From Thermoplasmata archaeon (lineage in GTDB: Archaea; Thermoplasmatota; Thermoplasmata; Lutacidiplasmatales; UBA184), in contig JAWOKS010000025.1 in the NCBI GenBank assembly GCA_033854115.1, positions 19,781 to 83,780 of the forward strand: a stretch of 64,000 nt of DNA, read 5' to 3'. A program made the position numbers and the translations under genes. The notes below the pieces were generated by a model that was given only the letters and a program-made list of their open reading frames with translations, had not been told where the DNA came from and searched no databases. This document shows, one piece after another, positions 1,380 through 64,000 of the stretch (position 1 is the first letter of the stretch; each line of letters begins with the position of its first letter).

Positions 1380-1385
1380 ATAAAG
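1380..1385 (-). promoter_or_regulatory. TATA-like box (CTTTAT on minus strand) for tyrS
   Basis: An A/T hexamer in an otherwise GC-rich spacer, 22-27 nt upstream of GTG 1358. This fits an archaeal leaderless promoter. Confidence 0.35.
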
Positions 1386-1443
1386 GCGGTGGGGGACCGC
1401 ACCCCGCCCCTTCCGCGCGCCCCGGAGGTCCGAGGGCGGTCTT

Positions 1444-3720: not shown

Positions 3721-3794
3721 GGGTCCCGCGCGCTCCGGCCCGTCCCGTTCGCCCCAGCGAAGGGCTATGTACCGGCCGCCCGTCTCTCGCTCTT

Positions 3795-9925: not shown

Positions 9926-10443
9926 GCGTCCCCTGCGGCCGCGCCCCGGAGCGGCAGGGCGGCGAGGGTCCGGTGGACGGCCCCGCCGGCGCCGAGCACG
10001 CTCTCCTTGAGGAGGAGCTCGTGCACCGCGACCTCCCGGGGGGGAGGGGCGGGCCGCCGGCCGGCGAGGAGCTCCTCGGCCGCCCGCCGGTCCGCCTCCG
10101 ACCGCACGCGGAAGAGCGTGAGATGCGGGACGAAGAGCTCGCGGGTCTCGGCCGGTTCGCCGATCGCCTCGCGGACCCGACGTGCGAGTTCCACCACCTC
10201 CTCCCGTCCCGCGCTGACGCCGACCCAGACGACCCGCGGCCGCGTGGACGAGGGGAACGCGCCCACCCCCTCGATGCGGAGGACGAACGGAGCGAACCCG
10301 CGCGCGACCTCGTCGAGGCGTTCGACGAGCCAGCCGTTCCGTTCCGCCGGGACCTCGCCGAGGAAGAGGAGGGTGAGGTGCGGGCTCGCTCGGTCGCGGG
10401 CCGCCGCGGGGTCCCCGACCTCGATCGCGACGAACTCCCTCAC
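9922..10443 (-). CDS. ligT: 2H phosphoesterase family protein (2',5' RNA ligase LigT / ThpR-like)
   Basis: Two H-x-T-x motifs at the expected spacing (HLTLLFLG and HLTLFRV). The protein is ~173 aa. The GTG start overlaps the stop of the upstream ATPase gene (GTGA at 10440-10443). Confidence 0.8.
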   Translation of the reverse strand: MREFVAIEVGDPAAARDRASPHLTLLFLGEVPAERNGWLVERLDEVARGFAPFVLRIEGVGAFPSSTRPRVVWVGVSAGREEVVELARRVREAIGEPAETRELFVPHLTLFRVRSEADRRAAEELLAGRRPAPPPREVAVHELLLKESVLGAGGAVHRTLAALPLRGAAAGDA

Positions 10444-13028: not shown

Positions 13029-13171
13029 CGCTCCCCCTCGGGCTCCGGCACCCCGACGACTCTCTTCGGGACGCGGAGCGGGGGCGACCCTACGGTCCAG
13101 GGCCGGCGTTCCCAGGCGCGTTCGCGTGGAAGGGGTTCGCGCATCCTCGGCTCGCGACGTTCGTCGCGCAT
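13025..13171 (-). CDS. Possible 48-aa Arg/Glu/Pro-rich small protein, translationally coupled to the ATPase gene
   Basis: My own translation gives MRDERREPRMREPLPRERAWERRPWTVGSPPLRVPKRVVGVPEPEGER*. Its TGA overlaps the ATG of the 862-aa gene (ATGA at 13025-13028). GAAGGAGGCGAGAAGG lies just upstream of the ATG. It falls below the ORF-track size cutoff and its composition is not diagnostic. Confidence 0.3.
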   Translation of the reverse strand: MRDERREPRMREPLPRERAWERRPWTVGSPPLRVPKRVVGVPEPEGER

Positions 13172-13752
13172 CTTCTCCAACCTTCTCGCCTCCTTCGCTG
13201 ACGCCGTGCGGGTGGAGGCGACCCCGCGCGGGTGGGCCTCCCGGTCCGGAACGGACGCCGAAGGCCCTACGTCGAGGGAACCCCGGCCAGGCTCCCGCTC
13301 GAGGTCGGCGGCCGGACGGCGGCTACGCCGCGACTACGGCGGGGGTCCGGGGGGGTCTCGGGCTCCGGGCGCGGACGAGGCGTCCGCGGGGGGGCGCGGG
13401 ACCCCGGGCCGGGGAGAGGGGCCTTCTCGCAGGGACCGTGCTCGGGGGGTTCAGCTCGACCGTCCGGTCGATCGAACGCGCAGAACGCGGGGCGAGGAGA
13501 AGGTCTCCATCGACGTACGGGGGACGGAGCCGGTCCGAGAAGAGGAACGCGTCGCGCGCCCCGGAACGTGAAAGATGGAGGTGGTGGGAAGGTGCCCCGC
13601 ACGTCGGGACGCGGTACCGTCCCCTGCGACGATCTTGGGGAACCTTCCCTGGGGTGGTTGCATACCTAAGACCGCAGGCCGGCTACTTGAACCCCGGAAC
13701 GGGGGGTCGTGGAACGGTCCTCTCGGGGACCGGTTCCGACCGAGGTGACCCG

Positions 13753-16481: not shown

Positions 16482-17645
16482 CTACCCGAGCTGGAGCCGC
16501 TCGACGTTCGGGGCCGCTCCGGGCCGAAGGAACCGGGCGGGGGAGAACTCCTGCGGATCGAGGTCGAGCTTCTCACCGAGGACGGCCTGGGCGACCCGGC
16601 GGCTCGCCGCGGGGGCGAGCATGAAGCCGTGGCCGCCGAAGCCGTTCGCGTGCACGAACCCTGCGAGACGCGGGTCCTCGCCGATGATTGGAAGCCCGTC
16701 GGGGGTGTCGTCGTAGAAGCCGGACCAGGCGCGCAGCACCCCGAGTCCTCGCAGGCGTGGGAGGAGGCCGACGAGCGCCCTCGCCATCGAGGTCAGGAAC
16801 CGCGCGGAGCTCGGCACGCCCCGGGCGGTGCCGGTCGGATGCGGCACGCTGAGCCCGCCGACCAGCTCCCCGCGCACGGTCTGGCTGAAATAGAGGCCGT
16901 CGGACGCCCGGACGACCATCGGGTCGAGGAACGGCTTCATCGGCTCGGTCGCGAGGATCTCGTGGCGGGTGGCGATGTTCGCGACCTCGAGGCCGGCCCG
17001 CCGCGAGAGCTCGCCCGACCAGCCTCCCGCCGCGTTCACCACCGTGGGGGTCCGGACCGTGCCCGCCCCCGTGCGGACCGCGCTCACGCGGCCCCCGTCC
17101 CGCTCGATCGCCTCGACGTCGGTCCCGAGCGCGACCTCCACGCCCAGCCCGCGGACGGCCTCGTAGACGCCCCAGACGGCCGGGAACGGGAAGAGGGTCC
17201 CGTCGGTCGCGAGGTACGCCCCCCCGACGATCGTCCCGGGGTCGATTCCCTCGATGAGGTCCGCGATCTCCGCGGGACGGAGCATTCTCGGGCTCAGGCC
17301 CTCGGACCGCACGACCCTCTGGACCCGCTCGAGCCGGGCGAGCTCGTCGGGGTCCTCGGCGAGGAAAAGGTACCCGCCCTGGCGGAACCAGACGTTGTGC
17401 CCGAAGTCGCGGCCGAACCGCCGGTAGGCGGCGACCGCCTCGCGGGCGAGCCGGACGGTCGAGCGCGTCTCCCATTGCTGGCGGACCCCGCCGCCGTTCC
17501 GCCCCGACCCGCCGTTCGAGAGGTACCCGCGGTCGACGACGAGGAGCGGGGCGATCCCCGCGCGCGCGAGGTGGTAGGCCGTGAACAGTCCGACGATGCC
17601 GGCGCCCACGACGACCGCCCGGTAGTCCGTGCGAGCGAGCGTCAC
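16482..17645 (-). CDS. FAD-dependent oxidoreductase, DAO family (sarcosine oxidase beta / archaeal dye-linked dehydrogenase beta-like)
   Basis: Contains YRAVVVGAGIVGLFTAYHLARAG (GxGxxG) and a C-terminal GFGGHGFMLAP typical of the DAO/SoxB family. The GTG start overlaps the stop of the upstream gene (GTGA at 17642-17645). Confidence 0.85.
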   Translation of the reverse strand: MTLARTDYRAVVVGAGIVGLFTAYHLARAGIAPLLVVDRGYLSNGGSGRNGGGVRQQWETRSTVRLAREAVAAYRRFGRDFGHNVWFRQGGYLFLAEDPDELARLERVQRVVRSEGLSPRMLRPAEIADLIEGIDPGTIVGGAYLATDGTLFPFPAVWGVYEAVRGLGVEVALGTDVEAIERDGGRVSAVRTGAGTVRTPTVVNAAGGWSGELSRRAGLEVANIATRHEILATEPMKPFLDPMVVRASDGLYFSQTVRGELVGGLSVPHPTGTARGVPSSARFLTSMARALVGLLPRLRGLGVLRAWSGFYDDTPDGLPIIGEDPRLAGFVHANGFGGHGFMLAPAASRRVAQAVLGEKLDLDPQEFSPARFLRPGAAPNVERLQLG

Positions 17646-19291
17646 GACCCGGCCTCCGGCGGGGCGGCTTCCGCGAGCTCCGCGAGCGCGCCGAGGGCTG
17701 TGGGGACCAGCGGGGGACGCTGCGTGATGAACCCGACCTCGGGCGGCGTGCGCCCCTCGAGCAGGGCGAGGACGAGGATCGCCTCCGGCAGGCAGAACCG
17801 CCCCTGGCAGAGCCCGGTGCCGGCGCTCGTGTAGCGCTTGATCACCTCAAGACCGCGGTAGCCGCGGGCGTGGGCGGCCTCGACCTCGTCCAGGAGAACG
17901 TCCTCGCACGGGCAGAGGACCCATTTGTCCCGACGCGGCTCGCGCAGGAGCTCCCGGTAGTAGGCGAGGAGCTCGCCCCTCGTCCTCTCGACCGGGCCCG
18001 GGGCGGCGGGGCGCGGGGGCGCGCCGAGGACCGCCGTCGCCACGTCCCGGGGGTCGAGGTCCGCCCCGCCACGGGGGGAGGCGGCGGACCCGGCCGCGAA
18101 GAGGCCCTCCACGGGCGTGCGACCCGCCGGTTCGAGGTCGGGGTAGTACGCTCCCGGAGGGTCCCGCCAGACGCGGGGAACCCCGGCCTGGAACAGGAGC
18201 TGGGCGTTCGGCAGGCGCCGGTGGGCGAGGACGACGCTCGCGCACGGGAGACGGAACCGTCCCGTGCCGTCCCGCCGGGCCAGCTCGACCGCGCGGATCC
18301 TCCGTCGGCCGATCGCCCGCACGACCCGCGTGCGCGGATAGAGCGGCACGCCGAGCTCCGCGGCGGCGCCCGCGACCTCCGGGTCGATCGCGTCGAACCC
18401 GACGACCGCCCGCACCTCCTCGCCGAGCCGCTCCACCACCTTGCGCGCCCGCGGGCCGCCCCCGACCACGACCGTTGGACCGAACGGGAGCCCGAGGCCG
18501 GCGAGCACGAGGTCGCCCGTCACGATGCCGGGCCGGTCCGAGCCCTCGAAGAGGAGCCCGGCATCGTACCCCCCGCTCGCGACGACGACCGAGCTCGCAC
18601 GGACGCGGATCCCGCGTCCCTCGTCGTCGAACCCGAGGACCGTGAACCCGGTCGCGCTGCCGGCCTCGGGCGGGGCGAGGAACGTCGCGGTCGTCCCCTC
18701 GACCAGGTCCGCCCCTTCGATCCCCGGGGACGCCCTCGGGCGCTCGCGCTCGAGGACGAGCGGTCTCCGTCCGCGCTGCGCGAGCTCCGCCGCGACCGCC
18801 CGGCCCGCGGCCCCGGCGCCGATCACCACGGTCTCGACGGACCACGTCCGCGTCCCGGGGCGCGCGCGGGCGACGGCCGGATCCGGCACGGCGCCGTAGC
18901 CGGCGAGCCGTCGCACGACCTTCTGGTAGAGCCGCGTCGCCCACGCCGGGCGCCGGAAGCCGTGGACGGTGTCGATCCCGCGCGGGAGCACGAGGTCGAG
19001 GACCCCGAGGAGATCGAACCTCGGCCCGGGCCAGGCGTTCTCGGTGCGGACGCGGTCTCCGTCCTCGACGCGGTAGCGGCAGGCACGGACGTTCGGCCGG
19101 CCGTTCACGCGCACGAGGCATCCGGCGCAGACGCCGGTGCCGCAGACCGGGCCGCGGGGGCGATGGTAGCGCACCGAACGCACGAGCGACGGCCAGCCGC
19201 GGCGCGCGAGCGCTTCGAGGAGGGTCTCCCCGGCCCGTGCCTCCTCGGTCGACCGACCGAACCGGAACCGTCGGGACGAGGGCACGCTCAT
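17642..19291 (-). CDS. Fused 2Fe-2S / FAD-NAD(P) oxidoreductase / BFD-like [2Fe-2S] protein (sarcosine-oxidase-alpha, OoxA/HcnB-like partner subunit)
   Basis: The N-terminus has RFRFGRSTEEARAGETLLEALARRG...PRGPVCGTGVCAGCLVRVNGRPNVRAC. A mid-region dinucleotide fold is VETVVIGAGAAGRAVAAELAQRG. The C-terminus has WVLCPCEDVLLDEVEAAHARGYRGLEVIKRYTSAGTGLCQGRFC (BFD-like). Confidence 0.8.
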   Translation of the reverse strand: MSVPSSRRFRFGRSTEEARAGETLLEALARRGWPSLVRSVRYHRPRGPVCGTGVCAGCLVRVNGRPNVRACRYRVEDGDRVRTENAWPGPRFDLLGVLDLVLPRGIDTVHGFRRPAWATRLYQKVVRRLAGYGAVPDPAVARARPGTRTWSVETVVIGAGAAGRAVAAELAQRGRRPLVLERERPRASPGIEGADLVEGTTATFLAPPEAGSATGFTVLGFDDEGRGIRVRASSVVVASGGYDAGLLFEGSDRPGIVTGDLVLAGLGLPFGPTVVVGGGPRARKVVERLGEEVRAVVGFDAIDPEVAGAAAELGVPLYPRTRVVRAIGRRRIRAVELARRDGTGRFRLPCASVVLAHRRLPNAQLLFQAGVPRVWRDPPGAYYPDLEPAGRTPVEGLFAAGSAASPRGGADLDPRDVATAVLGAPPRPAAPGPVERTRGELLAYYRELLREPRRDKWVLCPCEDVLLDEVEAAHARGYRGLEVIKRYTSAGTGLCQGRFCLPEAILVLALLEGRTPPEVGFITQRPPLVPTALGALAELAEAAPPEAGS

Positions 19292-19403
19292 CGAAGGAGG
19301 CGGGCGGGAACGCCCGCCCCGGCTATTTAGCGCCCCCGACGGCCGGGCCGACCGGCTCCGGTCCGCGCGTCCGGGGCCGACGAACCCAGGGGCGCGCGGA
19401 CGA

Positions 19404-19413
19404 AACTATATAG
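19404..19413 (+). promoter_or_regulatory. TATA box (AACTATATAG) for the AbrB-PhoU gene
   Basis: A strong A/T block centred about 30 nt upstream of ATG 19441. It abuts the upstream ATG 19414, which argues against that start. Confidence 0.45.
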
Positions 19414-29721: not shown

Positions 29722-30894
29722 TCAGCGGAGGGCCTCGCGGCGTCCGCCGGTGAGGTCCCGCTCAGGGCTCACGAGACGCGCGACGTCGGGCTCGATCGCC
29801 GGTCGACCGTGCGCGATCAGCGAGGCGAGGTGCCGGCCGACCCCCGGGCCGAGCATGAAGCCCTGGCCGCACATCCCGACCCCGAGGTAGAGGCCGTCGA
29901 CGTTCGGCGCCCTGCCCACGATTGGGAGCCCGTCCGGCGTCATCGGGTAGAGCCCGCGCCAGACCCGCCGGATCGTGAGGTTCTTGAGACGCGGAAGGAC
30001 CTCGACGAGCCGGGCCGCGACGATCGGCATGAACTCGTAGGTCGAGACGCGGTTCTCCCCGGGGATCGGGACCCGCGGCGTGTAGCAGAAGATCACCTGG
30101 TCGTCCGCGTCCTGTCCGAAGTAGAAGTTGGAGGTCTTCCCCTCCGGCCCGGGCCGCAGGTCGACCACGAGCGGGCCGAGGAACCGCTCGACCGGGGCCG
30201 AGATCCCGGCCTCGTGGCTCTCCGGGAGGATCGGGACGGGCACCCCCGCCGTCCGGCCGATGCGATCGGCGTGGACCCCGGCCGCGTTGACGACGACCGG
30301 GGCCCGGTACTCGGCCCGCTCGGTCGCGAGCCCCACCACCGTGGAGCCGCGCACGAGGATCGAACGGACCGTCTCCCGGTAGCGGTAGACCGCCCCGCGG
30401 CGGATCGCCTCCCGGGTGAACGACTCGGAGGCCCGGAGCGGGTTGACCTGGCCATCCTCGGGAGAGAACGTGCCCCCGCGCAGCCCGTCCGGGTTGATGC
30501 CGGGGACGAGGCGACGGACCTCCTCCGCGTCGCGCCAGTCGATCGCGAGGCGGTGCTGGTGCTGGACCGGGAGCAGCGAGCGGAGGGTCGCCTCGACCTT
30601 CTCGTCGAACGCGGGGAAGCAGTAGCCGCCCGGCTTCCAGCCGATGTCGGTGCCGGTCGCCTCCTTCCAGTGGGAGAAGGTCTCGAGGCTCAACTGACAG
30701 AGCCGGATCTTCGCCGGGTCCGAGTGCGTGGCCCGGACCCCGCCGATCGCCGCCTTGTTCTGCCCCTGGCCGGACGACGCGAGCTCGTCCACCACGAGCA
30801 CCCGCAGCCCTTCCTCGGCGAGGGCGAACGCCGTAGGGTTGCCGACCGACCCCGCGCCCACGACGATCGCGTCAAACTCGGGAGTCGTCAGCAC
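29722..30894 (-). CDS. FAD-dependent oxidoreductase, DAO family (probable L-proline dehydrogenase beta-type subunit)
   Basis: Contains FDAIVVGAGSVGNPTAFALAEEG (GxGxxG) and a C-terminal GVGMCGQGFMLGPGVG. It is a paralog of 16482..17645. The assignment to proline is an inference from the adjacent P5C dehydrogenase. Confidence 0.85.
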   Translation of the reverse strand: MLTTPEFDAIVVGAGSVGNPTAFALAEEGLRVLVVDELASSGQGQNKAAIGGVRATHSDPAKIRLCQLSLETFSHWKEATGTDIGWKPGGYCFPAFDEKVEATLRSLLPVQHQHRLAIDWRDAEEVRRLVPGINPDGLRGGTFSPEDGQVNPLRASESFTREAIRRGAVYRYRETVRSILVRGSTVVGLATERAEYRAPVVVNAAGVHADRIGRTAGVPVPILPESHEAGISAPVERFLGPLVVDLRPGPEGKTSNFYFGQDADDQVIFCYTPRVPIPGENRVSTYEFMPIVAARLVEVLPRLKNLTIRRVWRGLYPMTPDGLPIVGRAPNVDGLYLGVGMCGQGFMLGPGVGRHLASLIAHGRPAIEPDVARLVSPERDLTGGRREALR

Positions 30895-33007
30895 CTTCCC
30901 CCAGGAACGCGCGGAGCGGGACCTCCTGCGTGAACGGTCGATGCACCGGCGGCGTGAGGGTGCGGGGGTCGATCCCGAGCTCGCGGTAGACCCGCACGAT
31001 GAGCTCGGTGCACGTCTTCCCTCCGCACGGCCCCATCCCGCAGCGGAGCGCGGCCTTGACGGCGTTCAGGTCCCGCGCCCCGGTCGTGCGGACGTAGTCG
31101 AGGATCGCCTCGCGCGTCACGCGCTCGCAGCGACAGACGACCACCTCGTCGTCGCGCGCCGCGGGGGTCGGGACGAGGGGAGGGAGAGCCTCGGGGGGAC
31201 GGTACCGCACGCCCGCGACGCGGTCCGCCTCGTTCGCGGGCACCTCGAGGACGACGAGCCGGCGCCGGCGGAGGGCCTTCCCTGCGAGGACCCGGACCAC
31301 CGTGCCGGTCCCGACGGGCTCGCCCTCCGCACCGGTGGTGGGGACCTCATCGCCCGCGCGCGGACCCCCGTCGGGCATCTCCCACGGCACCGTAACGCGC
31401 GCGCGGGCGCGCCCCCCGTCGTACCGCCGGTCGACGAGGCTGATCGCGAGGCCCGGGCAGACGACCACGCACTGGAGGCAGCCGACGCAGTCGCCGGTGA
31501 GCCGCGGCCGGCCGAGGAGGTTCCCCTCGGGGATCGTGATGCTGTCCTTCACGCAGACCTCGGTGCACGGGTTGCACGGGATCTCCTGCGCGCACCGGAT
31601 CACCGGGTAGACCTTCGCCTCGGCAGGCACGGGATAGGCTCCGAGCACGGGGCCCGGGTGCGAGCTCAGCGTCGCGCGGAGCGCGAGCCAGGCGGCGGGG
31701 ACCTCCACGGGCTCGCCGAGGTCCTTGAGGATCGACCGGGCCGCGATCTTCCCGGAGAACATCGCGGCGGACGCCTCCGCGATCTCGCGGGCATCGCCCG
31801 CCGCGTAGGCCCGGAGGCCGAGGCGCTGCGCCTCCTGGTAGAGCTCGTTCACGGAGGAGAGGCCGACCGCGACGAGGACCGTGTCGACCTCGTAGGCGCG
31901 CGCGGTCCCCTCGACCGGCCGGAAGTTCGCGTCGACCTCGGCGACGATCGCCCGTTCCACGTGGTCGGTCCCCTCGGCGCGAAGGACCGTGTGGGAGGTG
32001 AGGACCGGCACCCCGAGCCGGAGGAGCTTGTCGCGGTGGACCCGGTAGCCCCCTACCTCGGGCAGGACTTCAACGACCGCGGCAACGTCGACGCCGGCCT
32101 GGAGGGCCTGGTACGCGACGATCAGCCCGACGTTGCCACCCCCGACGACGAGGATCCGCCGGGACGGCCGGACGAGGTCCCGGTTCACGAGCGTCTGGAA
32201 CGCCCCCGCGCCGTAGACGCCGGGGAGGTCCGCCCCGGGGAACGCGAGCGCCTTCTCGCGGGCGCCCGCGGCGACCAGGAGCGCCTGGGGACGTACCAGG
32301 GTGAACCTCCCGTGGCGGACGACGCCGACCACCCCTCCGTCGAAGATCCCGACGACCGGGGCCTCGGTCCAGACCTCGACCTCGGGATGCGAGCGGACGT
32401 CGCGGTCGAGCCGCGCGGCAATCTCCGTGCCCCGCTCGCCGGCGTAGCAGTCCTCGACCGAGCCGAAGAAGTTGTGCGTCTGCAGGGTGAGCTTCCCGCC
32501 GAGCGTCGGCTTGTCGTCGCAGAGGAGGACGCGCCGTCCGTGCGCGCCGAGCTCGGCGGCCGCCGCGAGGCCGGCCGGTCCGCCGCCCACGATGAGCACG
32601 TCGGTCGTGACCTCGTCGATCCCGCGCCGCGCGGGCGGGGGCCCGGCCTCGGGCCGGAGCGGGGGGAACCCCTCGAGCGGCTCGACGACCATCCCCGGCC
32701 GCACGGGGGTGAGGCACGCCTTCACGGCGAGCCCGTCGGCGAGCACGAGGCACTGGGCGCACTGGCCGTTCGCGCAGAAGATCCCCTGGGGGGCACCGTC
32801 CCGCCGGTGCCGGCCGAAGACCTGGACGCCGTTCGCGAAGAGCGCGGAGGCGATCATCTCGTTCCGGCGCGCCGTGAGGTCCCGCCCGTGGAACGTGAAC
32901 GTCACCGTCTCCGGGTGCTCCGGAACGTCGAGGATTGGGTGCTTTTCGATGCGGGCCGGCGCCGGAGCGAGCATGCTTGGCCCGAAGGAGGGCCGGGACG
33001 CGGTCAT
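30872..33007 (-). CDS. Multi-domain redox subunit: 2Fe-2S + FAD/NAD(P) oxidoreductase + 2x[4Fe-4S]-like + BFD-like [2Fe-2S]
   Basis: Reading N- to C-terminus: FTFHGRDLTARRNEMIASALFANG...FCANGQCAQCLVLADGLAVKAC, then DVLIVGGGPAGLAAAAELG and RILVVGGGNVGLIVA, then IRCAQEIPCNPCTEVC...GDCVGCLQCVVVCP, then VVVCRCERVTREAILDYV...LRCGMGPCGGKTC. Confidence 0.85.
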   Translation of the reverse strand: MTASRPSFGPSMLAPAPARIEKHPILDVPEHPETVTFTFHGRDLTARRNEMIASALFANGVQVFGRHRRDGAPQGIFCANGQCAQCLVLADGLAVKACLTPVRPGMVVEPLEGFPPLRPEAGPPPARRGIDEVTTDVLIVGGGPAGLAAAAELGAHGRRVLLCDDKPTLGGKLTLQTHNFFGSVEDCYAGERGTEIAARLDRDVRSHPEVEVWTEAPVVGIFDGGVVGVVRHGRFTLVRPQALLVAAGAREKALAFPGADLPGVYGAGAFQTLVNRDLVRPSRRILVVGGGNVGLIVAYQALQAGVDVAAVVEVLPEVGGYRVHRDKLLRLGVPVLTSHTVLRAEGTDHVERAIVAEVDANFRPVEGTARAYEVDTVLVAVGLSSVNELYQEAQRLGLRAYAAGDAREIAEASAAMFSGKIAARSILKDLGEPVEVPAAWLALRATLSSHPGPVLGAYPVPAEAKVYPVIRCAQEIPCNPCTEVCVKDSITIPEGNLLGRPRLTGDCVGCLQCVVVCPGLAISLVDRRYDGGRARARVTVPWEMPDGGPRAGDEVPTTGAEGEPVGTGTVVRVLAGKALRRRRLVVLEVPANEADRVAGVRYRPPEALPPLVPTPAARDDEVVVCRCERVTREAILDYVRTTGARDLNAVKAALRCGMGPCGGKTCTELIVRVYRELGIDPRTLTPPVHRPFTQEVPLRAFLGEGADDSRV

Positions 33008-33069
33008 TAACCCCGTATCAAGGAGAGTTCACGAAACGGTTAGTACCGCGGGTCCGCTCGCGGGAGGTC

Positions 33070-34689: not shown

Positions 34690-34765
34690 GCGCGCCCGGT
34701 CGGCTTCGTTCCCCCGCGGCCGGTCCGGAGGGCCAGGCCCTCGTCCCCGCACGCGCCCGGGAGGG

Positions 34766-34850
34766 TGCGGGGAGAGGGATTTGAACCCACGAACCCCTAC
34801 GGGACCAGACCCTGAATCTGGCGCCTTTGGCCAAGCTTGGCAATCCCCGC
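34766..34850 (-). tRNA. tRNA-Leu (anticodon CAG), 85 nt, no encoded CCA
   Basis: Folded by hand. The acceptor is GCGGGGA/TCCCCGC. The anticodon stem CCAGA/TCTGG carries loop TTCAGGG. It has a long variable arm (TCCCGTAGGGGTTC), T-loop TTCAAAT and discriminator A. There is one U-U mismatch in the T-stem. Confidence 0.85.
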
Positions 34851-50731: not shown

Positions 50732-50832
50732 GGTCCCTCCGCGACGGGAATGGTCTCCCGCGGGCTAATACGATTCGCTCCCCGGGAGTCCACCTTCCGG
50801 GCTCGGGCCGCGGCGCACCACGCGCCAGAGAG

Positions 50833-50907
50833 TGCTCCCGGCGGGATTTGAACCCGCGTTACGGGGTCGAAGGCCCCGAATCCTTGGCCGGACTAGACTA
50901 CGGGAGC
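50833..50907 (-). tRNA. tRNA-Glu (anticodon UUC), 75 nt, no encoded CCA
   Basis: Folded by hand. The acceptor is GCTCCCG/CGGGAGC and the D-arm is GTCT..GGAT. The anticodon stem CGGGG/CCCCG carries loop CCTTCGA. T-arm is GCGGG-TTCAAAT-CCCGC, with discriminator A. Position 33 reads C rather than the usual U. Confidence 0.8.
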
Positions 50908-58258: not shown

Positions 58259-59065
58259 GTGGGCGGCCGGTCGCGGCAGGGAGGGGTCCGGCTGGTGCGC
58301 GGCGACGCGCGCGTCCTCGAGGGGATCCCCGACGCCTCCGTCGACCTCATCGTCACGAGCCCCCCCTACCCGATGATCCCCCAGTGGGACGAGCTGTTCC
58401 GCCGCCTGGGCGCCACGGACCATGCCGCGATGCTCCGCGTCCTGGCGGACGCCTGGAAGGCGGCCTACCGCGTCCTGGTCCCGGGCGGCCTCCTTGCGGC
58501 GGTCGTCGGGGATGCCCTGCGCCGGGGGGAGGACGGGTTCCGGCTGTGGGCCAACCACGCCGCGACGCTCCTCGACGCCGAGGCCGCGGGGTTCGTGCCG
58601 CTGCCGTACGTCCTGTGGAAGAAGCCGACGAACCGGCCGAACGCCTACCTCGGCTCCGGTTTCCTTCCTCCGAACGCCTACGTCACGCTCGACTGCGAGT
58701 TCGTCCTGCTCCTCAGGAAGGGCGCCCTGCGGGGCTTCCCGCCCCACGACCCCCGCCGCGAGGCGAGCCGGTTCACCCGGGCCGAGCGCGACCGATGGTT
58801 CTCCCAGGTCTGGGACGACGTGCGCGGGGCCCCCCAGCGCGGACCGCGAGGGAGAACAGGGGCGTTCCCCCCGCACCTTCCCGAGCGCCTGATCCGCATG
58901 TTCTCGGTCGTTGGCGACACCGTGCTCGACCCGTTCGCCGGCACCGGAACGACCGTGTGGGCGGCGGCGCGCCTCGGGCGCCGGGCGATCGGGGTCGAGT
59001 ACGATGCCACGACGTTCGCGTCCCTCGTCGCGGACGCGCGGCGCCGGGGCCTCGTCAGGGCGTAG
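58259..59065 (+). CDS. Site-specific DNA methyltransferase, beta class (N4-cytosine or N6-adenine)
   Basis: Motif IV DLIVTSPPYP comes before motif I VLDPFAGTGTT, which is the beta-class order. SPPY is more typical of m4C enzymes. I recognised no restriction endonuclease next to it. Confidence 0.8.
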   Translation: MGGRSRQGGVRLVRGDARVLEGIPDASVDLIVTSPPYPMIPQWDELFRRLGATDHAAMLRVLADAWKAAYRVLVPGGLLAAVVGDALRRGEDGFRLWANHAATLLDAEAAGFVPLPYVLWKKPTNRPNAYLGSGFLPPNAYVTLDCEFVLLLRKGALRGFPPHDPRREASRFTRAERDRWFSQVWDDVRGAPQRGPRGRTGAFPPHLPERLIRMFSVVGDTVLDPFAGTGTTVWAAARLGRRAIGVEYDATTFASLVADARRRGLVRA

Positions 59066-59684
59066 GCGCCGCGGGCGGCGGTGCGGCCGCCGGGGGAGCC
59101 TCCGCGGGCGGGGCTGGGGCCGAGGACGCCGCCGTGGGCTCGGGCGTCCCGTCGGGGTCCGTCGAAGTGAGGGGCGCGATCGGGGTCGGCGGCGGGAGCG
59201 GCCCGGGGGAGGTCCTCGCCCGGTGGGCGAGCTCCTCGTCCACCGTGGTGCGGAGGTAGCGGAGCGCGGCGTCCCCGAGGCGGTCGAGGTGCAGGAGAAG
59301 GTAGTGGAGGTAGAGCCGCTCCGGTCGGGAGAGCGGCCCCGGTAGACGGACCCGCTCCCCGAGCGCGGCGGGCGGGGGGCGATGCCGCTCGAGGGTCTCC
59401 GCGTGGTGCTCGTGGTCCGGGCCGTGGTAGTCCCGCCCCGCCGCTCCCACGAGCGGAGGGTAGACGTGGCCGACCGGGTCGTAGCGTTCCTCGGGGGCGT
59501 TCGCCCCTCCGTTCCCGCCTCTTCCCGACGCGGCTCCGAGCTTCGCCTGGAGGTACGGGTGCACGGGCCGGCTGGGGTCCTGGAACTCCCCGATCGGCCG
59601 ACCGGAGACGTCCTCGACGATCGTCTTCAGGCTCCAGCTCGCGCGTCGCCGCGCCGGGCCGTCGGCCGTCGCACCGTCCGGCAC
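59055..59684 (-). CDS. Hypothetical protein with a His-rich patch and a Pro/Ala-rich tail
   Basis: ORF 59055..59684(-), immediately downstream of the VirB4-like gene. The central region has ordinary composition (RLYLHYLLLHLDRLGDAALRYLRTTVDEELAHR). It also has DYHGPDHEHHAETLERH. I recognised no family. Confidence 0.45.
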   Translation of the reverse strand: MPDGATADGPARRRASWSLKTIVEDVSGRPIGEFQDPSRPVHPYLQAKLGAASGRGGNGGANAPEERYDPVGHVYPPLVGAAGRDYHGPDHEHHAETLERHRPPPAALGERVRLPGPLSRPERLYLHYLLLHLDRLGDAALRYLRTTVDEELAHRARTSPGPLPPPTPIAPLTSTDPDGTPEPTAASSAPAPPAEAPPAAAPPPAAPTP

Positions 59685-59708: not shown

Positions 59709-61406
59709 CTATAAACCCCCACCTCCATCGGAACGGGTCGCCGACCCGGGCTCGGCCCCCCGGGCTCCGAGGGCGGCGCTGATCAGCTCGAACTCCGGGG
59801 TCGAGGCGACGAGCGCGAGCGGAAGGTGCCAGCCGCCGACCCTCCAGAGCGACTCCGCGTAGCCCGCCTCCCGCGGCAGACGCGCCCGGGGAAGCCACTC
59901 CGCCTCGGACGCCGACAGCCCGAAGAACGCCCGGCTCGCCTCCGAGACCTCGGGAAGCCGCAGGAGGCCGACGGCGAACAGGTTGCGGAGGAGCGACCGG
60001 CCGCTCGGACGGCCGAGGAAGTCGTCCGGATTCTGCGTGACGAGGAGGACGCCCGCCTCGAAGTGGCGGACATGCCGGACGAGCCGGTCGAGGAACTCGG
60101 TGGTCCCCTCGTGTCGGGCGACGAGGTGGGCCTCGTCGAGCAGGAGGAGTTTCGGGCCGGGCCCCCGGGCGAGCCGGTGGTAGGACCAATCGAGCAGGTA
60201 CGTCAGGTGGAACGGGAGCTGGTCGTCCGGGATCCCCGAGAGGTCGATCGCGGTGAGGGGGTCGTCGACGCGCAGGGTCGTCGGCCCGTTCACGCCGCGG
60301 AGGGACCCCGACCGGAAGACCTCGAGCAGGGTCGCGAGCCGCGCGGCCCCCGGTCCGAGAGCGTCGAGGTCGTCCCGGAGGGCATCGAACGTGACCCCGT
60401 CCGCCGCGCGGTCGTACTCTCGGCTCAACGCGGCATCGAGGAGCGCGGTCTCCTCGTCACGCAGGCTCGGGAAGAGGGCCCGAAGCATGGTGCCGACCCT
60501 TCCGGCCTTCTCGCGACGATCGCCGGCCGTGGTGGCGAGGTCGAGCGGGTTCAGCCGGCCGGACTCCGGGTCCGCGAGGCGCACGACGGTCCCCCCGAGC
60601 GAGCGGACGAGCCGCGAGTACTCCCCGAGGGGATCGAGCACCAGCACCTCCGTCTCGGGCCGGAGCCACCGCGTCCGGAGGACCGTGAGCGCCGCGCCGA
60701 ACGATTTCCCGGAGCCGGTCGTTCCGAAGATCCCCCACGAGTGGCTCGCGTGGGCCCAGCGGTCAAGGAAGACCGGGCTCGCGTCGGCGAGCGCGAGCCC
60801 GAGCAGGACGCCGCCGGGCTCGAGGACCGTCTCGTCGCCGAACGGGAAGAGGGCCCCGACCCCGTCCGTGGTGAGCGTCTGCCAGTACCCTCGGGGCCGC
60901 CCGGAGGACCGGGCGAACGTGAGCGGGGCGAGGGCCTCCGCCGTCTCGTAGCGGGGGACGCGCGTGCGGAACCCGAGCGCGGCGAGCCGCTCGGCGAGCT
61001 GACGGCGGGCGGTCTCCGCCCCGGCCCGCGAGGAGCTGTTCGCGACGAAGCGGAGGCCGGTCCTCCAGAGCTCCTGGACGCGTCCGGCGAGCGCCCGACC
61101 GAGCTCCTCGGCGGCGACGCGCTCGACCTCGAGCTCGGGCGTCGCCGGCCCGCCGCCGCCCGCGGCCAGCTCGGCCTCCGCGACGGCGCGCGCCGCTTGA
61201 ACGACCTCGAGCGCCCGGGCCGGAGGGAGCCGTTCGGCCTCGAGGGCGACGTGGACGGGCGTCGAGGAGGAGGCCACGCGCCCGACGAACCCGAACGGGA
61301 CCTCGGGGGGGAAGCGGTGGACGAGGAGGGGGGCGGCGAAGCGGCGCCCGACCCGGAGCCACGTCGGACCCTCCCACCGGCCCGACGTGCGGTCGCCCGA
61401 CCTCAC
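59709..61406 (-). CDS. VirB4/TrbE/CedB-like type-IV-secretion ATPase
   Basis: Contains WGIFGTTGSGKSFGAALTVL (Walker A), PKLLLLDEAHLVARHEG (Walker B) and GVLLVTQNPDDF. An N-terminal VirB4-like segment is TWLRVGRRFAAPLLVHRFPPEVPFGFVGRV. I place the start at GTG 61406, which overlaps the stop of the upstream gene (GTGA). The 670-aa track ORF is over-extended. Confidence 0.8.
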   Translation of the reverse strand: MRSGDRTSGRWEGPTWLRVGRRFAAPLLVHRFPPEVPFGFVGRVASSSTPVHVALEAERLPPARALEVVQAARAVAEAELAAGGGGPATPELEVERVAAEELGRALAGRVQELWRTGLRFVANSSSRAGAETARRQLAERLAALGFRTRVPRYETAEALAPLTFARSSGRPRGYWQTLTTDGVGALFPFGDETVLEPGGVLLGLALADASPVFLDRWAHASHSWGIFGTTGSGKSFGAALTVLRTRWLRPETEVLVLDPLGEYSRLVRSLGGTVVRLADPESGRLNPLDLATTAGDRREKAGRVGTMLRALFPSLRDEETALLDAALSREYDRAADGVTFDALRDDLDALGPGAARLATLLEVFRSGSLRGVNGPTTLRVDDPLTAIDLSGIPDDQLPFHLTYLLDWSYHRLARGPGPKLLLLDEAHLVARHEGTTEFLDRLVRHVRHFEAGVLLVTQNPDDFLGRPSGRSLLRNLFAVGLLRLPEVSEASRAFFGLSASEAEWLPRARLPREAGYAESLWRVGGWHLPLALVASTPEFELISAALGARGAEPGSATRSDGGGGL

Positions 61407-61777
61407 GGGACCTCCCGCGGTGCCGCCTTCGCCCTCGTCCGACGCCCGGTCGCCCAAAGCGGGACGAGCGCAAGGCCGAGGAGGAACCCGCGCTCGGTCG
61501 CCAGGGCGGGGGGCGGATCGAGGAACAGCCCGACCATCCCCGCGAGCAGGGCGAGGGCCAGCGCCGGAGCGAGCCGGGAACCGGTCGCCGGGCCGGGTCC
61601 GGCCGCCCGTCGTTGCCGGGAGGCCCAGCCCGCGACCGCGAGGGCGGCGAGGGGGAGCAGGACCGGCGCCAGCGTAGGGACGGCGAGCGACAGCGCTCCG
61701 GCGATGACGGCAAGACCGCACGCGGTGCCGAACGCCTCGAACCCGAGGTCGGAGGCCATCCGAGCGCGCCCGATCAT
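61403..61777 (-). CDS. Small integral membrane protein (3-4 TM) of the T4SS-like operon
   Basis: It has hydrophobic segments ACGLAVIAGALSLAVPTLAPVLLPLAALAVAGWA, LAPALALALLAGMVGLFL and GFLLGLALVPLWA. Both gene boundaries overlap their neighbours by 4 nt. Confidence 0.6.
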   Translation of the reverse strand: MIGRARMASDLGFEAFGTACGLAVIAGALSLAVPTLAPVLLPLAALAVAGWASRQRRAAGPGPATGSRLAPALALALLAGMVGLFLDPPPALATERGFLLGLALVPLWATGRRTRAKAAPREVP

Positions 61778-62556
61778 CCCCGCGAGGACCTCTCCCCGAG
61801 GCCCATCTTCCGGCTCGCGTCCTCGAGCGCCCGATCCCGCAGCCGCTCCGGCCGGAGCCCGAGGCCGGCGAGCCGGTCTCGGAGCGCCGCGATCGAACTC
61901 TCGAGCCGGCCGTGGTCCTCCGGACCGGCCCCCTCCACGGCCACGGCGACGTAGACCCGTCGCACGGACCGTCGTCGGGCGAGGAGCCCGACGAGCTCAG
62001 CGTAGCCGTCGCGGGCCTTCCGCTCGGTCCCGACGGGCGCGGGCTCCGCCGGGGCGAGCGCGTTCGCGAAGATCGGGGCGGACGTCGCGACGATCGCGAG
62101 GCTCCCGTCCAGGGACCGGAGGAGCTCGCGGTACTGTTCGAACGTGCGGGCGAGCTCGTCGGGGGGGAGGTAGGCCAGTGGTACCCCGCCCGTGCGGACG
62201 ATCCCGGCCAGCCGGCCGTCCTCGAGCCGCACCGTCGATCTCCTTCGGGTCGGGGAGGCCCGCTCGGGCCCGGTCACGCGGTTCCCTCGGGCGAGCCGTC
62301 GGCCCGTCCAGCGGAGCAGGGGGCCGAGGCGCTCGTGGAGGGGCTCGTGGCCGGGACGCGCCATCGTGAGCGCGGAGGCGAGCAGCACGACCGGGACTCC
62401 GGCCCAGGGCCCCGCCACAAGGGCGAGGATCCCGCCGATTGCGGCCCCGGTGACGAACCCGAGCGCCTCCCGCCCCGAAGGGAAGGGACCGAGCCGAAGC
62501 CTCCGATCGAGGCGTTCGGGCACGGCGACCCGCGGCGGCCCGTCACCGTCGGCCAT
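61774..62556 (-). CDS. PrgI/VirB3-like membrane hairpin fused to a soluble domain resembling the N-terminal segment of Gram-positive-type VirB4
   Basis: Contains MADGDGPPRVAVPERLDRRLRLGPFPSGREALGFVTGAAIGGILALVAGPWAGVPVVLLASALTMA, then STVRLEDGRLAGIVRTGGVPLAYLPPDELARTFEQYRELLRSLDGSLAIVATS. I place the start at ATG 62556 (the track gives 62652). Confidence 0.6.
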   Translation of the reverse strand: MADGDGPPRVAVPERLDRRLRLGPFPSGREALGFVTGAAIGGILALVAGPWAGVPVVLLASALTMARPGHEPLHERLGPLLRWTGRRLARGNRVTGPERASPTRRRSTVRLEDGRLAGIVRTGGVPLAYLPPDELARTFEQYRELLRSLDGSLAIVATSAPIFANALAPAEPAPVGTERKARDGYAELVGLLARRRSVRRVYVAVAVEGAGPEDHGRLESSIAALRDRLAGLGLRPERLRDRALEDASRKMGLGERSSRG

Positions 62557-63682
62557 CCTCGCCCCGCTCCGCGGAATGGAACGGCGGCAGCCGGGGCGGT
62601 CGGTCGCGGAGGCCCGGGCCGTGTCCCAGGTGGCGCGCGAGGTGCCGGGCACCGTGCCCGAGGAGCTCGTGGACGGCGGTGGGGATCGCGAGGGGAGCGG
62701 TCGCGCCGGCCACCGAACGGACGCTCCCGAGGGCCGCGCGGGCGGCCGGGCCCGATGCCGCGGCGGCGCTGGCGGACGGGGCGACCAGCCCGACCCCCGC
62801 CGACGGAGCGCTCGCGAACCCCCGCTGGACGCCGCTCTGGGCGAGCCCGCCGGCGCCCGGGAAGCCGAGGGCGACCAGGTGACCGCCCGCGGTCGAGAGG
62901 AGGAACGGGGCTCCGAGCGCGGCGGTCAGGTAGCCGACGAGGAGGATCGGGTTCGGGCTCCCGACGGCCAGTTCGAGCGGCACGACGAGCACGCACGGGA
63001 GGAACGCGAGCTCCGCGAACAGGAGCCAGGCCCGTCGCGGGATCGAGGAGAGGGGTCGGAACGGCCAGAGCAGGGTGAGGAGCGGGAGGACGACCAGGAG
63101 CGTGGCGAGCACGGCGTCCCGGATCCCCACCGCGAGCAGGAGCCCGAAGACGAGGGCGAACTCCGCGACCGCGAGCACGAACGCGAGCGCCCCGTTGTCC
63201 CAGGAGAAGCGGAGCTCGCCCCAGCCGGCGAGGTCGACCCAGTGGGTCCAGGCCCCCCCGTCCCAGCCCGCGACGACCGGGTAGAGGCCCCCGGCGACCG
63301 AGAGGATCCCCGCCGCGATCGGGACGGTGAAGTTGGCGGCGAAGACCGCGATGACGAGTCGCGTGAGGAGCCCGTCGAACTCGACCGCCCATCGGGCGAC
63401 GGTCGCCCGTGCGAGGTAGAGGAGCGCGACCCCGAGCGCGAGGAGCGCGACGAGCGGGTCGACGACGTTCCCGAGCAGGTACGCGGAGAACGCCGCGGCC
63501 TTCCCGAGGAAGTCCGTGGGGCCGCTTCCGTACACCGCGGGGTAGAGCGCGGACGAGGCGAGCTCGGGGACGAGCAGGTGGTCGTAGGTCGGGCCGACGA
63601 CGGCCGCGACCAGGGCCGTGAGGTCGGCGAAGAGGAGGAAGAGGATCGTGCGGACCAGATCGCCGACGTCGACCGCAAGCAT
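62543..63682 (-). CDS. Polytopic membrane protein (about 7 TM), VirB6/TrbL/CedA-like candidate
   Basis: ORF 62543..63682(-). It has repeated long hydrophobic helices (ILFLLFADLTALVAAVV, LVALLALGVALLYLA, LVIAVFAANFTVPIAAGILSVAGGL, FVLAVAEFALVFGLLLAV, LATLLVVLPLLTLLW, LLFAELAFLPCVLVVPL, ILLVGYLTAALGAPFLL) and a basic/Ala-Ser-rich C-terminal tail. Confidence 0.65.
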   Translation of the reverse strand: MLAVDVGDLVRTILFLLFADLTALVAAVVGPTYDHLLVPELASSALYPAVYGSGPTDFLGKAAAFSAYLLGNVVDPLVALLALGVALLYLARATVARWAVEFDGLLTRLVIAVFAANFTVPIAAGILSVAGGLYPVVAGWDGGAWTHWVDLAGWGELRFSWDNGALAFVLAVAEFALVFGLLLAVGIRDAVLATLLVVLPLLTLLWPFRPLSSIPRRAWLLFAELAFLPCVLVVPLELAVGSPNPILLVGYLTAALGAPFLLSTAGGHLVALGFPGAGGLAQSGVQRGFASAPSAGVGLVAPSASAAAASGPAARAALGSVRSVAGATAPLAIPTAVHELLGHGARHLARHLGHGPGLRDRPPRLPPFHSAERGEDGRR

Positions 63683-63690
63683 CGTTCCTC

Positions 63691-64000
63691 CTACGAGCCC
63701 GTCACGACCCAGTGGGCGAGGCCCCAGACGAGGCCGCTCACGGCCGCGGTGAACAGCAGCGTGCCGACGAGCGCGTCGCGTGCGCGGTCCTTCGCCTGGA
63801 CCTTCTTCGTGATGTCGTTGGAGAACCAGCTGAACGCGACGCGGGCCCAGACGAGCGCAAGGATCCCTCCGCCGGCGAACCCGACCAGCTCCACGAGCCG
63901 GTTGATCGCCGCGGTGAAGTTCGCGACGGGACCGCTCGTCCGATTCGGCGCGGGGGCCGCGTCGGACCCGTTCGAAGAGGGTCCCGGGCCCGGACCGGTC
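63691..64000 (-). CDS. VirB2/TrbC/CedA1-like pilin candidate (5' end beyond the window)
   Basis: The track lists 63691..63894, but the frame stays open to position 64000: ...GPGPGPSSNGSDAAPAPNRTSGPVANFTAAINRL-VELVGFAGGGILALVWARVAFSWFSNDITKKVQAKDRARDALVGTLLFTAAVSGLVWGLAHWVVTGS. It has two hydrophobic helices joined by a short basic loop at the C-terminus, as in VirB2-type pilins. Confidence 0.5.
   Translation of the reverse strand, partial: TGPGPGPSSNGSDAAPAPNRTSGPVANFTAAINRLVELVGFAGGGILALVWARVAFSWFSNDITKKVQAKDRARDALVGTLLFTAAVSGLVWGLAHWVVTGS

Follow-up and report, generated by a model that had tools for sequence, protein, structure and literature searches.

A stretch of 64,000 nucleotides of Thermoplasmata archaeon DNA (assembly GCA_033854115.1, contig JAWOKS010000025.1, positions 19,781 to 83,780; referred to in its whole length as the window) ends in five minus-strand genes (59709-64000) that resemble parts of a type IV secretion system (T4SS). 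Do these genes belong to a conjugative element, to a DNA-import apparatus like the archaeal Ced and Ted systems, or to something else? The original prediction, made from the letters of the window, leaned towards a chromosomal apparatus for DNA import or exchange built on VirB2, VirB3, VirB4 and VirB6-like proteins. We find that the genes form a fixed, vertically inherited chromosomal locus and not a mobile element. Judged from their sequence relationships, they appear to encode a derivative of a monoderm/archaeal T4SS resembling the mating-pair formation type FATA (MPF-FATA), of which only the components for assembling a conjugation-type pilus and a membrane channel are left. We regard it as highly probable that the locus encodes a domesticated, T4SS-derived pilus or channel apparatus. 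The fuller statement, that this chromosomal apparatus also serves DNA exchange between conspecific cells, is one that we favour by a small measure.

To describe the locus, we combined a mechanical listing of open reading frames (ORFs), an independent gene call and a check of coordinates, which concur on five tightly packed, co-oriented and conserved genes, as had been predicted. The same five genes were called independently on a near-identical contig (GCA_037917035.1 JBAIWW010000030.1; 13 mismatches in 10,565 nt). Since the independent gene call agrees and orthologues of each of the five core genes exist in dozens of species, these are not chance ORFs. The locus on the near-identical contig (L001) was used to extend the view by about 10 kb past the window end. 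In order of transcription, the genes encode a pilin (p131), a polytopic membrane protein (p379), a PrgI/VirB3-like protein (p260), a small integral membrane protein (p124) and a VirB4-family ATPase. An 8-nt gap separates the pilin and p379 genes, p379 and p260 overlap by 14 nt, and the p260/p124 and p124/ATPase overlaps measure 4 nt each. Five genes proved too small a unit: a gene of the same orientation (p209) follows 24 nt downstream of the ATPase gene, and in L001 another (p725) lies upstream of the pilin gene and overlaps it by 25 nt. The operon consists of seven co-oriented genes, p725, p131, p379, p260, p124, VirB4 and p209. The window has about 75% G+C, with no compositional break at the cluster. 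It contains an archaeal signal recognition particle RNA (3794-4106, plus strand; 139.5 bits), and the host is therefore an archaeon. Its place in the class Thermoplasmata agrees with the earlier suspicion of a non-crenarchaeal lineage.

The ATPase gene (59709..61406, minus strand) has a GTG start and encodes a short-form protein of 565 aa, not of 566 aa as first read. The protein matches the VirB4-like NCBIfam model conju_CD1110 with 132 bits (2e-38) over model positions 204-692 of 752; counted on a 670-aa ORF, this alignment covers residues 122-588, or 467 residues. Other VirB4 models score less (VirB4_plasma, 90.8 bits, 4.6e-26; TraC, 59.7 bits, 1.3e-16; VirB4_CagE, 56.1 bits, 2e-15), as do models outside the VirB4 group (CedD, 38 bits, 7e-10; HerA models, 11-23 bits, 3e-5 or weaker; CedB, 10.9 bits, 0.12). 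Every one of these scores lies under the NCBIfam equivalog cut-offs, and the protein is therefore a divergent VirB4 and no equivalog of any named subfamily. The Pfam matches are DUF87, P-loop_TraG and AAA_10, the best single one being DUF87 ('Helicase HerA, central domain'). The closest relative in the PDB is a VirB4 C-terminal domain (4AG5). Coordinate checks place the Walker A motif GTTGSGKS at residues 228-235 (60702..60725, minus strand) and the Walker B motif LLLLDEAH at residues 420-427 (60126..60149, minus strand). Residues G228, T230, G231, G233 and K234 of the former and D424, E425, A426 and H427 of the latter are invariant in 27 homologues. A tblastn search of 72,556 plasmid records returned 573 that match the ATPase, 370 of which are typed as conjugative, with Enterococcus, lactobacilli, Bacillus and haloarchaea as the main sources of the matches. 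We also calculated a crude neighbour-joining tree from unlabelled representatives at 50% identity, with two plasmid VirB4 sequences as its references and no HerA, CedB or TedB sequences included. In this tree the window ATPase groups with a second archaeal lineage (loci L090 and L094, described below), inside a clade of mostly short-form proteins.

By these comparisons the ATPase belongs to VirB4, with the monoderm/archaeal type as its nearest kin, and is not HerA, FtsK or CedB. The prediction of a VirB4-type ATPase is upheld by the distance between the CD1110 score and those of the HerA and CedB models, by 4AG5 as the best structure and by the plasmid matches. An affinity with HerA or FtsK, named beforehand as an outcome that would speak against it, is not what the profile scores show. 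Some orthologues are already labelled 'VirB4 family type IV secretion system protein' by NCBI, so that the identity of the ATPase is not new in itself; some databases name orthologues HerA. The protein itself consists of the latter half of the VirB4 N-terminal domain and the P-loop domain. The VirB4-like N-terminal segment that had been read on the ATPase is thus present in its second half, and the first half is found on p260.

The p260 gene (61774..62556, minus strand) encodes a membrane hairpin at about residues 31-60, as judged by hydropathy, and a soluble domain after it. Searched as a single sequence against Pfam and NCBIfam, p260 gave no matches, and the profile of its alignment found nothing meaningful among PDB sequences. 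The orthologues were more informative. A profile of 41 of them matches residues 1-290 of VirB4-like proteins of 700-1100 aa (P0345, 3e-12; P0306, 7.9e-12; and others), the downstream part of which matches the ATPase profile. One such fused relative, from another Thermoplasmata metagenome-assembled genome (MAG), reaches 29.5 bits for Pfam PrgI (cut-off 27) over residues 19-108, and another carries Pfam CagE_TrbE_VirB above the cut-off. The p260 profile also matches (3e-8) a protein that NCBI names 'PrgI family protein', whose gene immediately precedes that of a short VirB4 on an Embleya plasmid. Among the orthologues themselves, 14 of the 41 match NCBIfam SCO6880_fam, whilst direct Pfam matches are weak (PrgI in 5 of 41, TraC_F_IV in 2 of 41). 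An internal duplication was considered, and alignment of the p260 profile to the ATPase profile by hhalign showed no similarity. Taken together, p260 is best described as a PrgI/VirB3-like hairpin joined to the first VirB4 N-terminal module, which is here separately encoded. The ATPase aligns to CD1110 only from position 204 because that first module sits on p260. The earlier assignment of the 260-aa protein as PrgI/VirB3-like is therefore substantiated by the fused relatives, the Embleya match, SCO6880_fam and the weak Pfam PrgI matches.

The pilin gene enters the window with its 3' 310 nt (63691..64000, minus strand). The full gene encodes 131 aa, with a start that would lie at 64086 outside the window, and occupies 9597-9992 in L001. 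The protein has a Sec-type signal peptide, a variable linker and a mature helix-loop-helix part of about 76 aa with a basic loop, TKKVQAKDRARD, whose consensus reads SNDxTKKVQAKDRARD. Among 39 orthologues the mature part is almost invariant, and an N-F-T/S sequon is fully so. The AlphaFold2 (AF2) model of p131 (pLDDT 70.7) is a clean helix-loop-helix, with helices at 53-95 and 101-129. Against Pfam PF18895 (T4SS_pilin) the window protein scores 10-13.7 bits, below the gathering cut-off of 26.6, and 15 of the 39 orthologues match the family weakly, with a best E-value of 0.0027. The profile of the orthologues matches a 177-aa protein at locus L095 (6.1e-21, 65 bits), which is encoded at the equivalent position of a homologous cluster and scores 31.3 bits against PF18895. 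Because the profile matches a member that passes the cut-off of this family, p131 is placed transitively in the T4SS pilin family, and at the level of profile comparison its homology to a bona fide T4SS_pilin member is established. What had been described as a pilin-like protein with two hydrophobic helices and a basic loop is confirmed in this way. An N-terminal relationship has been reported between CedA1 and CedA; the corresponding hhalign comparison of the p131 and p379 profiles showed no similarity.

The p379 gene (62543..63682, minus strand) encodes a candidate VirB6/TrbL-like channel or platform. Hydropathy and AF2 agree on about 6-8 long transmembrane (TM) helices, and the protein has a low-complexity cytoplasmic tail; the AF2 model, from a 50-sequence alignment, is all-helical but weak (pLDDT 65.5, pTM 0.40). 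The p379 alignment profile found nothing meaningful among PDB sequences. In precomputed annotation, the orthologue P0165 carries a match to PF19590 TrbL_3 (E at most 1e-5), and this family, which we take to be TrbL/VirB6-like, is listed for 20 of 120 homologues. The p379 profile aligns collinearly, along some 200-280 residues, with TrbL_3-annotated proteins of loci L092 and L093 (7.2e-10 and 1.4e-6), and these proteins are encoded immediately upstream of fused PrgI-VirB4 genes. In five lineages, the position of p379 between the pilin and PrgI-like genes is kept. From the profile homology to TrbL_3-annotated proteins and the gene position we assign p379, with moderate confidence, as VirB6-like. 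The suggestion that the protein of about seven TM helices is a VirB6 thus gains support from homology and gene order but none from fold comparison.

Of the remaining products of the operon, p725 is a surface protein of 725 aa and the first operon gene (minus strand; it would lie at 64062-66239, past the window end, and occupies 7444-9621 in L001). Behind a signal peptide it carries PKD/Ig-like repeats with many N-x-S/T sequons, and a single TM anchor near the C-terminus is followed by a cytoplasmic tail of about 65 aa that resembles a winged helix (..VLRxIIEPADGADRxTVELLAEEAGVPLxxVRSTIDRLIAEGTVRSE..DGEEVLAWS). Conservation is far higher in this tail than in the ectodomain, and the 1790-aa homologues of the second lineage have the tail too. 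A membrane-anchored winged helix beside a DNA-transfer-type motor is unusual. p124 (61403..61777, minus strand) has 3-4 hydrophobic segments and no family match in Pfam or NCBIfam, and its profile found no match in plasmid loci or distant clusters. A small membrane gene likewise stands between the PrgI-like and VirB4 genes in L090, L094, L095, L096 and the Embleya plasmid, but its sequence shows no similarity to p124 that could be detected. p209 (59055..59684, minus strand) is a soluble, largely disordered protein of 209 aa and a conserved member of the module, with an orthologue in every locus that has sequence downstream of the ATPase gene. It contains three conserved motifs (RRRxSWSLKxIVEDV; YDPVxHxYPPLVG..GRxYHGPEHEHH; PERLYLHYLLLHxDRL) and no P-loop. 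Searches with p209 gave no Pfam or PDB match, and outside the main lineage its profile matched in the cluster of the second lineage only (3.8e-18 and 1.7e-16).

To establish how widely the locus is conserved, we collected homologues of the ATPase. About 500 were found at 62-73% identity, essentially all in Thermoplasmata MAGs from soil and peat, and a scan of one genome per GTDB species detected a relative in 150 species. The best 80 loci of these 150 species, all but one labelled Thermoplasmata, were compared for synteny by tblastn of 18 L001 proteins. All loci with enough flanking sequence (about 60 of the 80) showed identical order and orientation, running from DUF885, YjgF and fibrillarin through p725, p131, p379, p260, p124, VirB4 and p209 to a methyltransferase, an OMP-decarboxylase/RraA-like gene, a pseudouridine synthase and PstS. 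Compared with the window proteins, VirB4 is 56-73% identical, p379 47-68%, the mature part of the pilin 55-89%, p209 44-76% and p260 35-56%. The most divergent component is p725 (30-59%), and the flanking fibrillarin and methyltransferase show 61-78% and 60-79%. Since the locus is collinear in about 60 species, at identities comparable to those of its housekeeping flanks, it has been inherited vertically under purifying selection. The absence of synteny in related genomes, which had been named as an outcome that would count against the prediction, is thereby removed, and the preference for a chromosomal apparatus over a conjugative element is strengthened.

The surrounding DNA is in keeping with this. 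Upstream of the operon, the roughly 10 kb past the window beyond p725 encode fibrillarin, a YjgF-family protein, DUF885, MFS, TetR and radical SAM proteins. Downstream of p209 follow a convergent methyltransferase gene, the OMP-decarboxylase/RraA-like gene, the pseudouridine synthase and the pst operon. In 74 kb (the 64-kb window and 10 kb beyond) there is neither an integrase nor a relaxase, and neither a coupling protein nor a peptidoglycan/pseudomurein hydrolase. The lack of these genes noted earlier thus extends past position 64000. Two tRNA genes, tRNA-Leu(CAG) at 34764-34850 and tRNA-Glu(TTC) at 50832-50907 (both minus strand), do not adjoin the cluster, and there is therefore no obvious tRNA-linked integration site. 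The methyltransferase (58295..59065, plus strand; Pfam N6_N4_Mtase, 1.6e-31) is an orphan N6/N4 DNA methyltransferase with no restriction enzyme nearby, whose gene overlaps the 3' end of p209 by 11 nt. It is syntenic in the main lineage and is not found beside the module in L090, L094 or L096. We considered it as a part of the machine and rejected this on the latter ground; it is probably a neighbour.

The other 52 kb of the window are housekeeping and metabolic in content, including an aminoacyl-tRNA synthetase, serine hydroxymethyltransferase, glutamine synthetase, POR, a two-component system and dehydrogenases. Several further ORFs deserve mention. A second large PKD protein (926 aa; PKD 1.8e-8) is encoded at 6112-8892 (minus strand), unlinked to the cluster. 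A 960-aa ORF at 10440-13322 (minus strand) has gene-like codon bias (GC3 0.88) and no Pfam match at E up to 1e-5. At 1384-3720 (plus strand) a 778-aa ORF combines a C-terminal KaiC-like ATPase/DUF7504 with a long N-terminal region without known function. Paralogous pairs of a DAO-family FAD oxidoreductase and a 2Fe-2S/pyridine-nucleotide-disulphide oxidoreductase, at 16482-19405 and 29722-33028 (both minus strand), resemble sarcosine or opine oxidases.

To get a broader picture of the origin of the operon, we compared it with relatives outside the main lineage, which itself reduces to one full-length representative in a library clustered at 50% identity. The second lineage (L090, L094) has the same seven-gene module at another chromosomal site with another housekeeping neighbourhood; it encodes a 1790-aa PKD protein, a pilin, a VirB6-like protein, a PrgI-like protein, a small TM protein, VirB4 and a p209-like protein. 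L096, from a third lineage, carries the five-gene core amid housekeeping genes. The L095 cluster encodes extra proteins with pilin-like domains, and a weak integrase match and AbiEii are found nearby. At 2908-6126 of L095, the last 70 or so residues of three proteins of 326-406 aa match the pilin profile (6e-17, 3e-12 and 7e-6). Carried on large N-terminal domains, these pilin-like domains may represent minor or tip pilins. In L092 and L093, which are from other archaea and hold the nearest of the fused relatives, TrbL_3, fused PrgI::VirB4 and type IV coupling protein (T4CP)-like genes stand in a row, and the T4CP-like protein is above the Pfam cut-offs for TrwB_AAD_bind, T4SS-DNA_transf and TraG-D_C. 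The Embleya sp. plasmid NZ_CP108778.1 (L086 9867-15863) encodes a long PrgI-family protein, a small protein of the XF1762 family and a short VirB4, followed by a T4CP, a relaxase-like protein and NlpC/P60. Because this plasmid has the same tripartite order, archaea are not alone in having the VirB4 N-terminus divided, with its first module on a PrgI-like protein. The position after VirB4 is taken by a T4CP in L092, L093 and Embleya and by p209 in the window. At least four lineages have the ATPase together with pilin and TrbL_3-like genes. The simplest reading of these gene arrangements is that an MPF-FATA-type conjugation module lost its T4CP and DNA-processing genes and settled as a resident chromosomal operon, with a pilin and an adhesin that it had either retained or gained.

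How might such a machine work? In T4SSs, VirB4 powers the extraction and polymerisation of pilins, VirB3 tethers VirB4 to the membrane complex, and VirB6 provides a membrane platform or channel. By this model, the pilin precursor would be exported through Sec, its signal peptide removed and the mature protein left in the membrane as a two-helix hairpin with the basic loop in the cytoplasm; it would probably be N-glycosylated at the invariant N-F-T/S sequon. VirB4 would be held at the membrane by p260, which would also supply the missing first part of its N-terminal domain. There it would pull pilins out of the membrane and polymerise them on the p379 platform, with p124 and p209 as presumed lineage-specific accessories. 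p725 probably acts in cell-cell contact, as an adhesin or as an envelope anchor. A role in recognition between cells is speculation, which its high divergence would fit as species specificity, and its cytoplasmic winged helix could link cell contact to the motor or to DNA. Finally, the machine would move DNA between conspecific cells, probably as import, by analogy with Ced and Ted. Of these two functions, pilus assembly is likely by the same kind of comparison, and DNA import or exchange is plausible and forms the weaker half of the explanation we consider best. Because the cluster has no T4CP, relaxase or integrase and behaves like a housekeeping locus, its most likely role would be DNA transfer between conspecific cells that benefits the chromosome, as in Ced and Ted, and not the spread of an element.

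Several observations weigh against the assignment as a pilus and DNA-transfer machine. Compared with PDB sequences, the p131 profile found no solved pilin at E up to 10, and Foldseek with the p131 model gave nothing relevant among solved structures; short helical hairpins of this kind are poorly served by profile and Foldseek searches alike. Foldseek of the p379 model against the PDB returned noise, with no match below E = 1, which from so weak a model carries no weight as a negative. A search of 38 + 10 + 4 proteins against Pfam-A with hmmscan did not reproduce the precomputed TrbL_3 annotation, even on the same proteins. This discrepancy may reflect a different pipeline or Pfam release and not biology, and we treat the precomputed matches as supporting evidence only. 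Genes for a T4CP or a relaxase could lie in other parts of the genome, beyond the 74 kb. The DNA-transfer role is drawn by analogy, in organisms that are uncultured, and genes for recombination or repair (HerA/NurA/Rad50) are not linked to the cluster as they are in some Ted loci. Lastly, a T4SS without a T4CP can serve other ends, toxin export or adhesion for instance, and the conserved T4SS of Patescibacteria is needed for an epibiotic lifestyle (PMC12102498, PMC12857230).

The last point leads to the main rival, in which the same pilus machine has another job, such as adhesion, biofilm formation, cell-cell contact or the movement of proteins or other molecules, as proposed for the Patescibacteria T4SS. 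It would suit the conservation of a large Ig/PKD surface protein as the first gene of the module, the cluster's lack of T4CP, relaxase and DNA-processing genes, and the pilin-like C-termini on large ectodomains in L095, which suggest adhesive pilus tips; T4SSs with non-DNA roles are known (PMC12857230, PMC12102498). Yet Ced and Ted, the only experimentally studied archaeal systems of such minimal composition, are tied to DNA import (PMC9905601, PMC11868833), VirB4 and VirB6 make a translocation channel in every characterised T4SS, and effector, toxin or immunity genes are absent from the vicinity. We consider a non-DNA role unlikely on this balance, and a serious explanation all the same. Export of effectors into other cells, by a protein-secreting or contact-dependent killing T4SS, is improbable. 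Some T4SSs do function without VirD4 (PMC12857230), and the conserved orphan p209 lacks an assigned role, but no toxin/immunity pairs or variable cargo adjoin the cluster, whose neighbourhood is invariant housekeeping, and the strong conservation of p209 contrasts with the variability of typical effectors.

Two further accounts would deny the operon its status as a resident pilus machine. An integrated conjugative element or decaying remnant, with its T4CP, relaxase and integrase just past the window, was suggested by the window edge cutting the cluster, by related VirB4 genes on conjugative plasmids and in T4CP-bearing clusters, and by the weak integrase match and AbiEii near L095. It is largely refuted, and we hold it very improbable: the 10 kb past the window contain fibrillarin, YjgF, DUF885, MFS, TetR and radical SAM genes and no mobile-element genes, all of the roughly 60 informative loci keep the cluster and its two flanks in collinear order, G+C content is uniform across the region, and the housekeeping-like conservation and near-invariant mature pilin argue for purifying selection and not decay. 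We therefore rejected a self-transmissible integrative conjugative element or plasmid, since T4CP, relaxase and integrase are missing from the 74 kb and the position is the same in about 60 loci. The idea that the ATPase is a HerA/FtsK-type motor for repair or segregation, with the membrane genes as unrelated neighbours, could appeal to DUF87 as the best Pfam match and to the database entries that name orthologues HerA. DUF87, however, is common to HerA and VirB4, and the HerA models reach at most 23 bits against the 132 bits of CD1110 over 467 residues. Moreover, NurA, Mre11 and Rad50 are not nearby, the N-terminal module resides on a PrgI-like protein and is fused to VirB4 in relatives, and pilin and TrbL_3-like genes accompany the ATPase in at least four lineages. 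A HerA repair locus was rejected on the profile scores and the neighbours, and we give the idea next to no credence.

If DNA exchange is the function of the pilus machine, the locus would represent a third domesticated T4SS-derived family in Archaea and the first outside the Thermoproteota, a core operon of at least 150 species representatives for pilus-based chromosomal DNA exchange. We offer this as a tentative proposal, one that could well be wrong. Its parts would be a VirB2-type pilin, a VirB6-like platform, a VirB3/PrgI-like protein with half of the VirB4 N-terminus, VirB4 and a transmembrane adhesin; the clade would be that of mesophilic soil and peat Thermoplasmata, with sister modules in other archaeal lineages. 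Ced and Ted, each from a hyperthermophilic group, are the only DNA-moving chromosomal T4SS derivatives known in archaea. With a third family in an abundant uncultured soil lineage, such gene flow would reach mesophiles and another archaeal phylum, which would make conjugation-like chromosomal DNA exchange common in ordinary soil archaea and no speciality of hyperthermophiles. The relatives also form an evolutionary series, from fused PrgI-VirB4 with a T4CP (other archaea) and the split form with T4CP and relaxase (Actinobacteria) to the split form with a pilin and no T4CP found here, from which one can learn what happens when a conjugation machine is domesticated and what parts it can do without. 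In practical terms, the near-invariant pilin and VirB4 are good markers for metatranscriptomic or proteomic data from peat and soil.

Full-text searches that paired Thermoplasmata or Thermoplasmatota with type IV secretion, VirB4 or VirB2 brought up no published description, and the system is unmentioned in the Ced and Ted papers, in a 2025 T4SS review and in the paper describing the soil order Lutacidiplasmatales. The early remark that it might be undescribed in this lineage is in keeping with this. The locus is of interest for its breadth (at least 150 species), its habitat and the evolutionary series, and it departs from both Ced and Ted in phylum and habitat, in the separate PrgI/VirB3-like protein with its part of the VirB4 N-terminus, in p124 and p209, and in the linked adhesin with its winged-helix-like tail. 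VirB3 homologues have been stated to be absent in archaea (PMC11868833). Judging from the p260 profile matches, the locus and its relatives contradict that statement.

We finally compared the operon with known systems. The closest architecture is that of Ted from the Thermoproteales, likened by gene set only. Ted consists of the signal-peptide-bearing pilin TedC, the VirB6-like TedA with about 7 TM helices and the VirB4-like TedB, and has no T4CP (PMC9905601). Both systems are chromosomal and conserved across an archaeal order, have a signal-peptide pilin beside a VirB6-like protein of about 7 TM helices and a true VirB4, and lack T4CP and relaxase. They differ in host, with soil and peat Thermoplasmata here and hyperthermophilic Thermoproteales there. 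In our operon, moreover, VirB4 is split, with the first N-terminal module on the PrgI/VirB3-like protein; the conserved p124, p209 and p725 are additional; no Rad50, HerA or ParA gene is linked; and the p131 profile has no detectable similarity to any solved pilin sequence. The two may share no more than common T4SS ancestry.

The resemblance to Ced (CedA, CedA1, CedA2, CedB, CedD and CedE) from the Sulfolobales and Desulfurococcales, which imports DNA and, with Ted, is tied to DNA import (PMC9905601, PMC11868833), lies in a domesticated chromosomal set of pilin, polytopic protein and ATPase of the FtsK-HerA superfamily. In both, the VirB4 N-terminal domain is spread over two polypeptides, which in Ced are CedB and CedD. 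The ATPase of our operon, however, scores as VirB4 (132 bits) and not as CedB (10.9) or CedD (38), and the second polypeptide is a PrgI/VirB3-like membrane protein and no ATPase paralogue. The signal peptide of p131 is of the cleavable type, whereas CedA1 is reported to be unprocessed (PMC9905601). The membrane proteins of the cluster gave no NCBIfam match and no detectable sequence link to Ced components. Membership in Ced was rejected, since the CedB and CedD scores are far under those for VirB4 and the host belongs to the Thermoplasmata, not the Thermoproteota. The label 'Ced/Ted-like' therefore stands for the architecture, and not for sequence relationship to Ced components or to any solved pilin.

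Among bacteria, the T4SS of Patescibacteria is chromosomally conserved and essential for the epibiotic lifestyle, with DNA movement not shown (PMC12102498, PMC12857230). It shares with our operon MPF-FATA ancestry, lineage-wide occurrence mostly without relaxase, VirB2-like pilins of PF18895 and a monoderm envelope (PMC12102498). It differs in its bacterial host and epibiotic lifestyle, in usually retaining VirB8, VirB1 and often a T4CP, and in pilins that occur in arrays. The monoderm MPF-FATA modules of Firmicutes, Actinobacteria and archaeal plasmids, exemplified by Embleya, L092 and L093, have the same order of large membrane protein, PrgI-family protein, small protein and VirB4, and their VirB4, PrgI-like and TrbL_3-like components are homologous to those described here. 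Those modules continue with a T4CP, to which Embleya adds a relaxase-like protein and NlpC/P60, and are located on plasmids or in variable regions. The Thermoplasmata operon, in contrast, has none of these genes and combines its VirB4, PrgI-like and TrbL_3-like core with a VirB2-like pilin and an adhesin, fixed in the chromosome.

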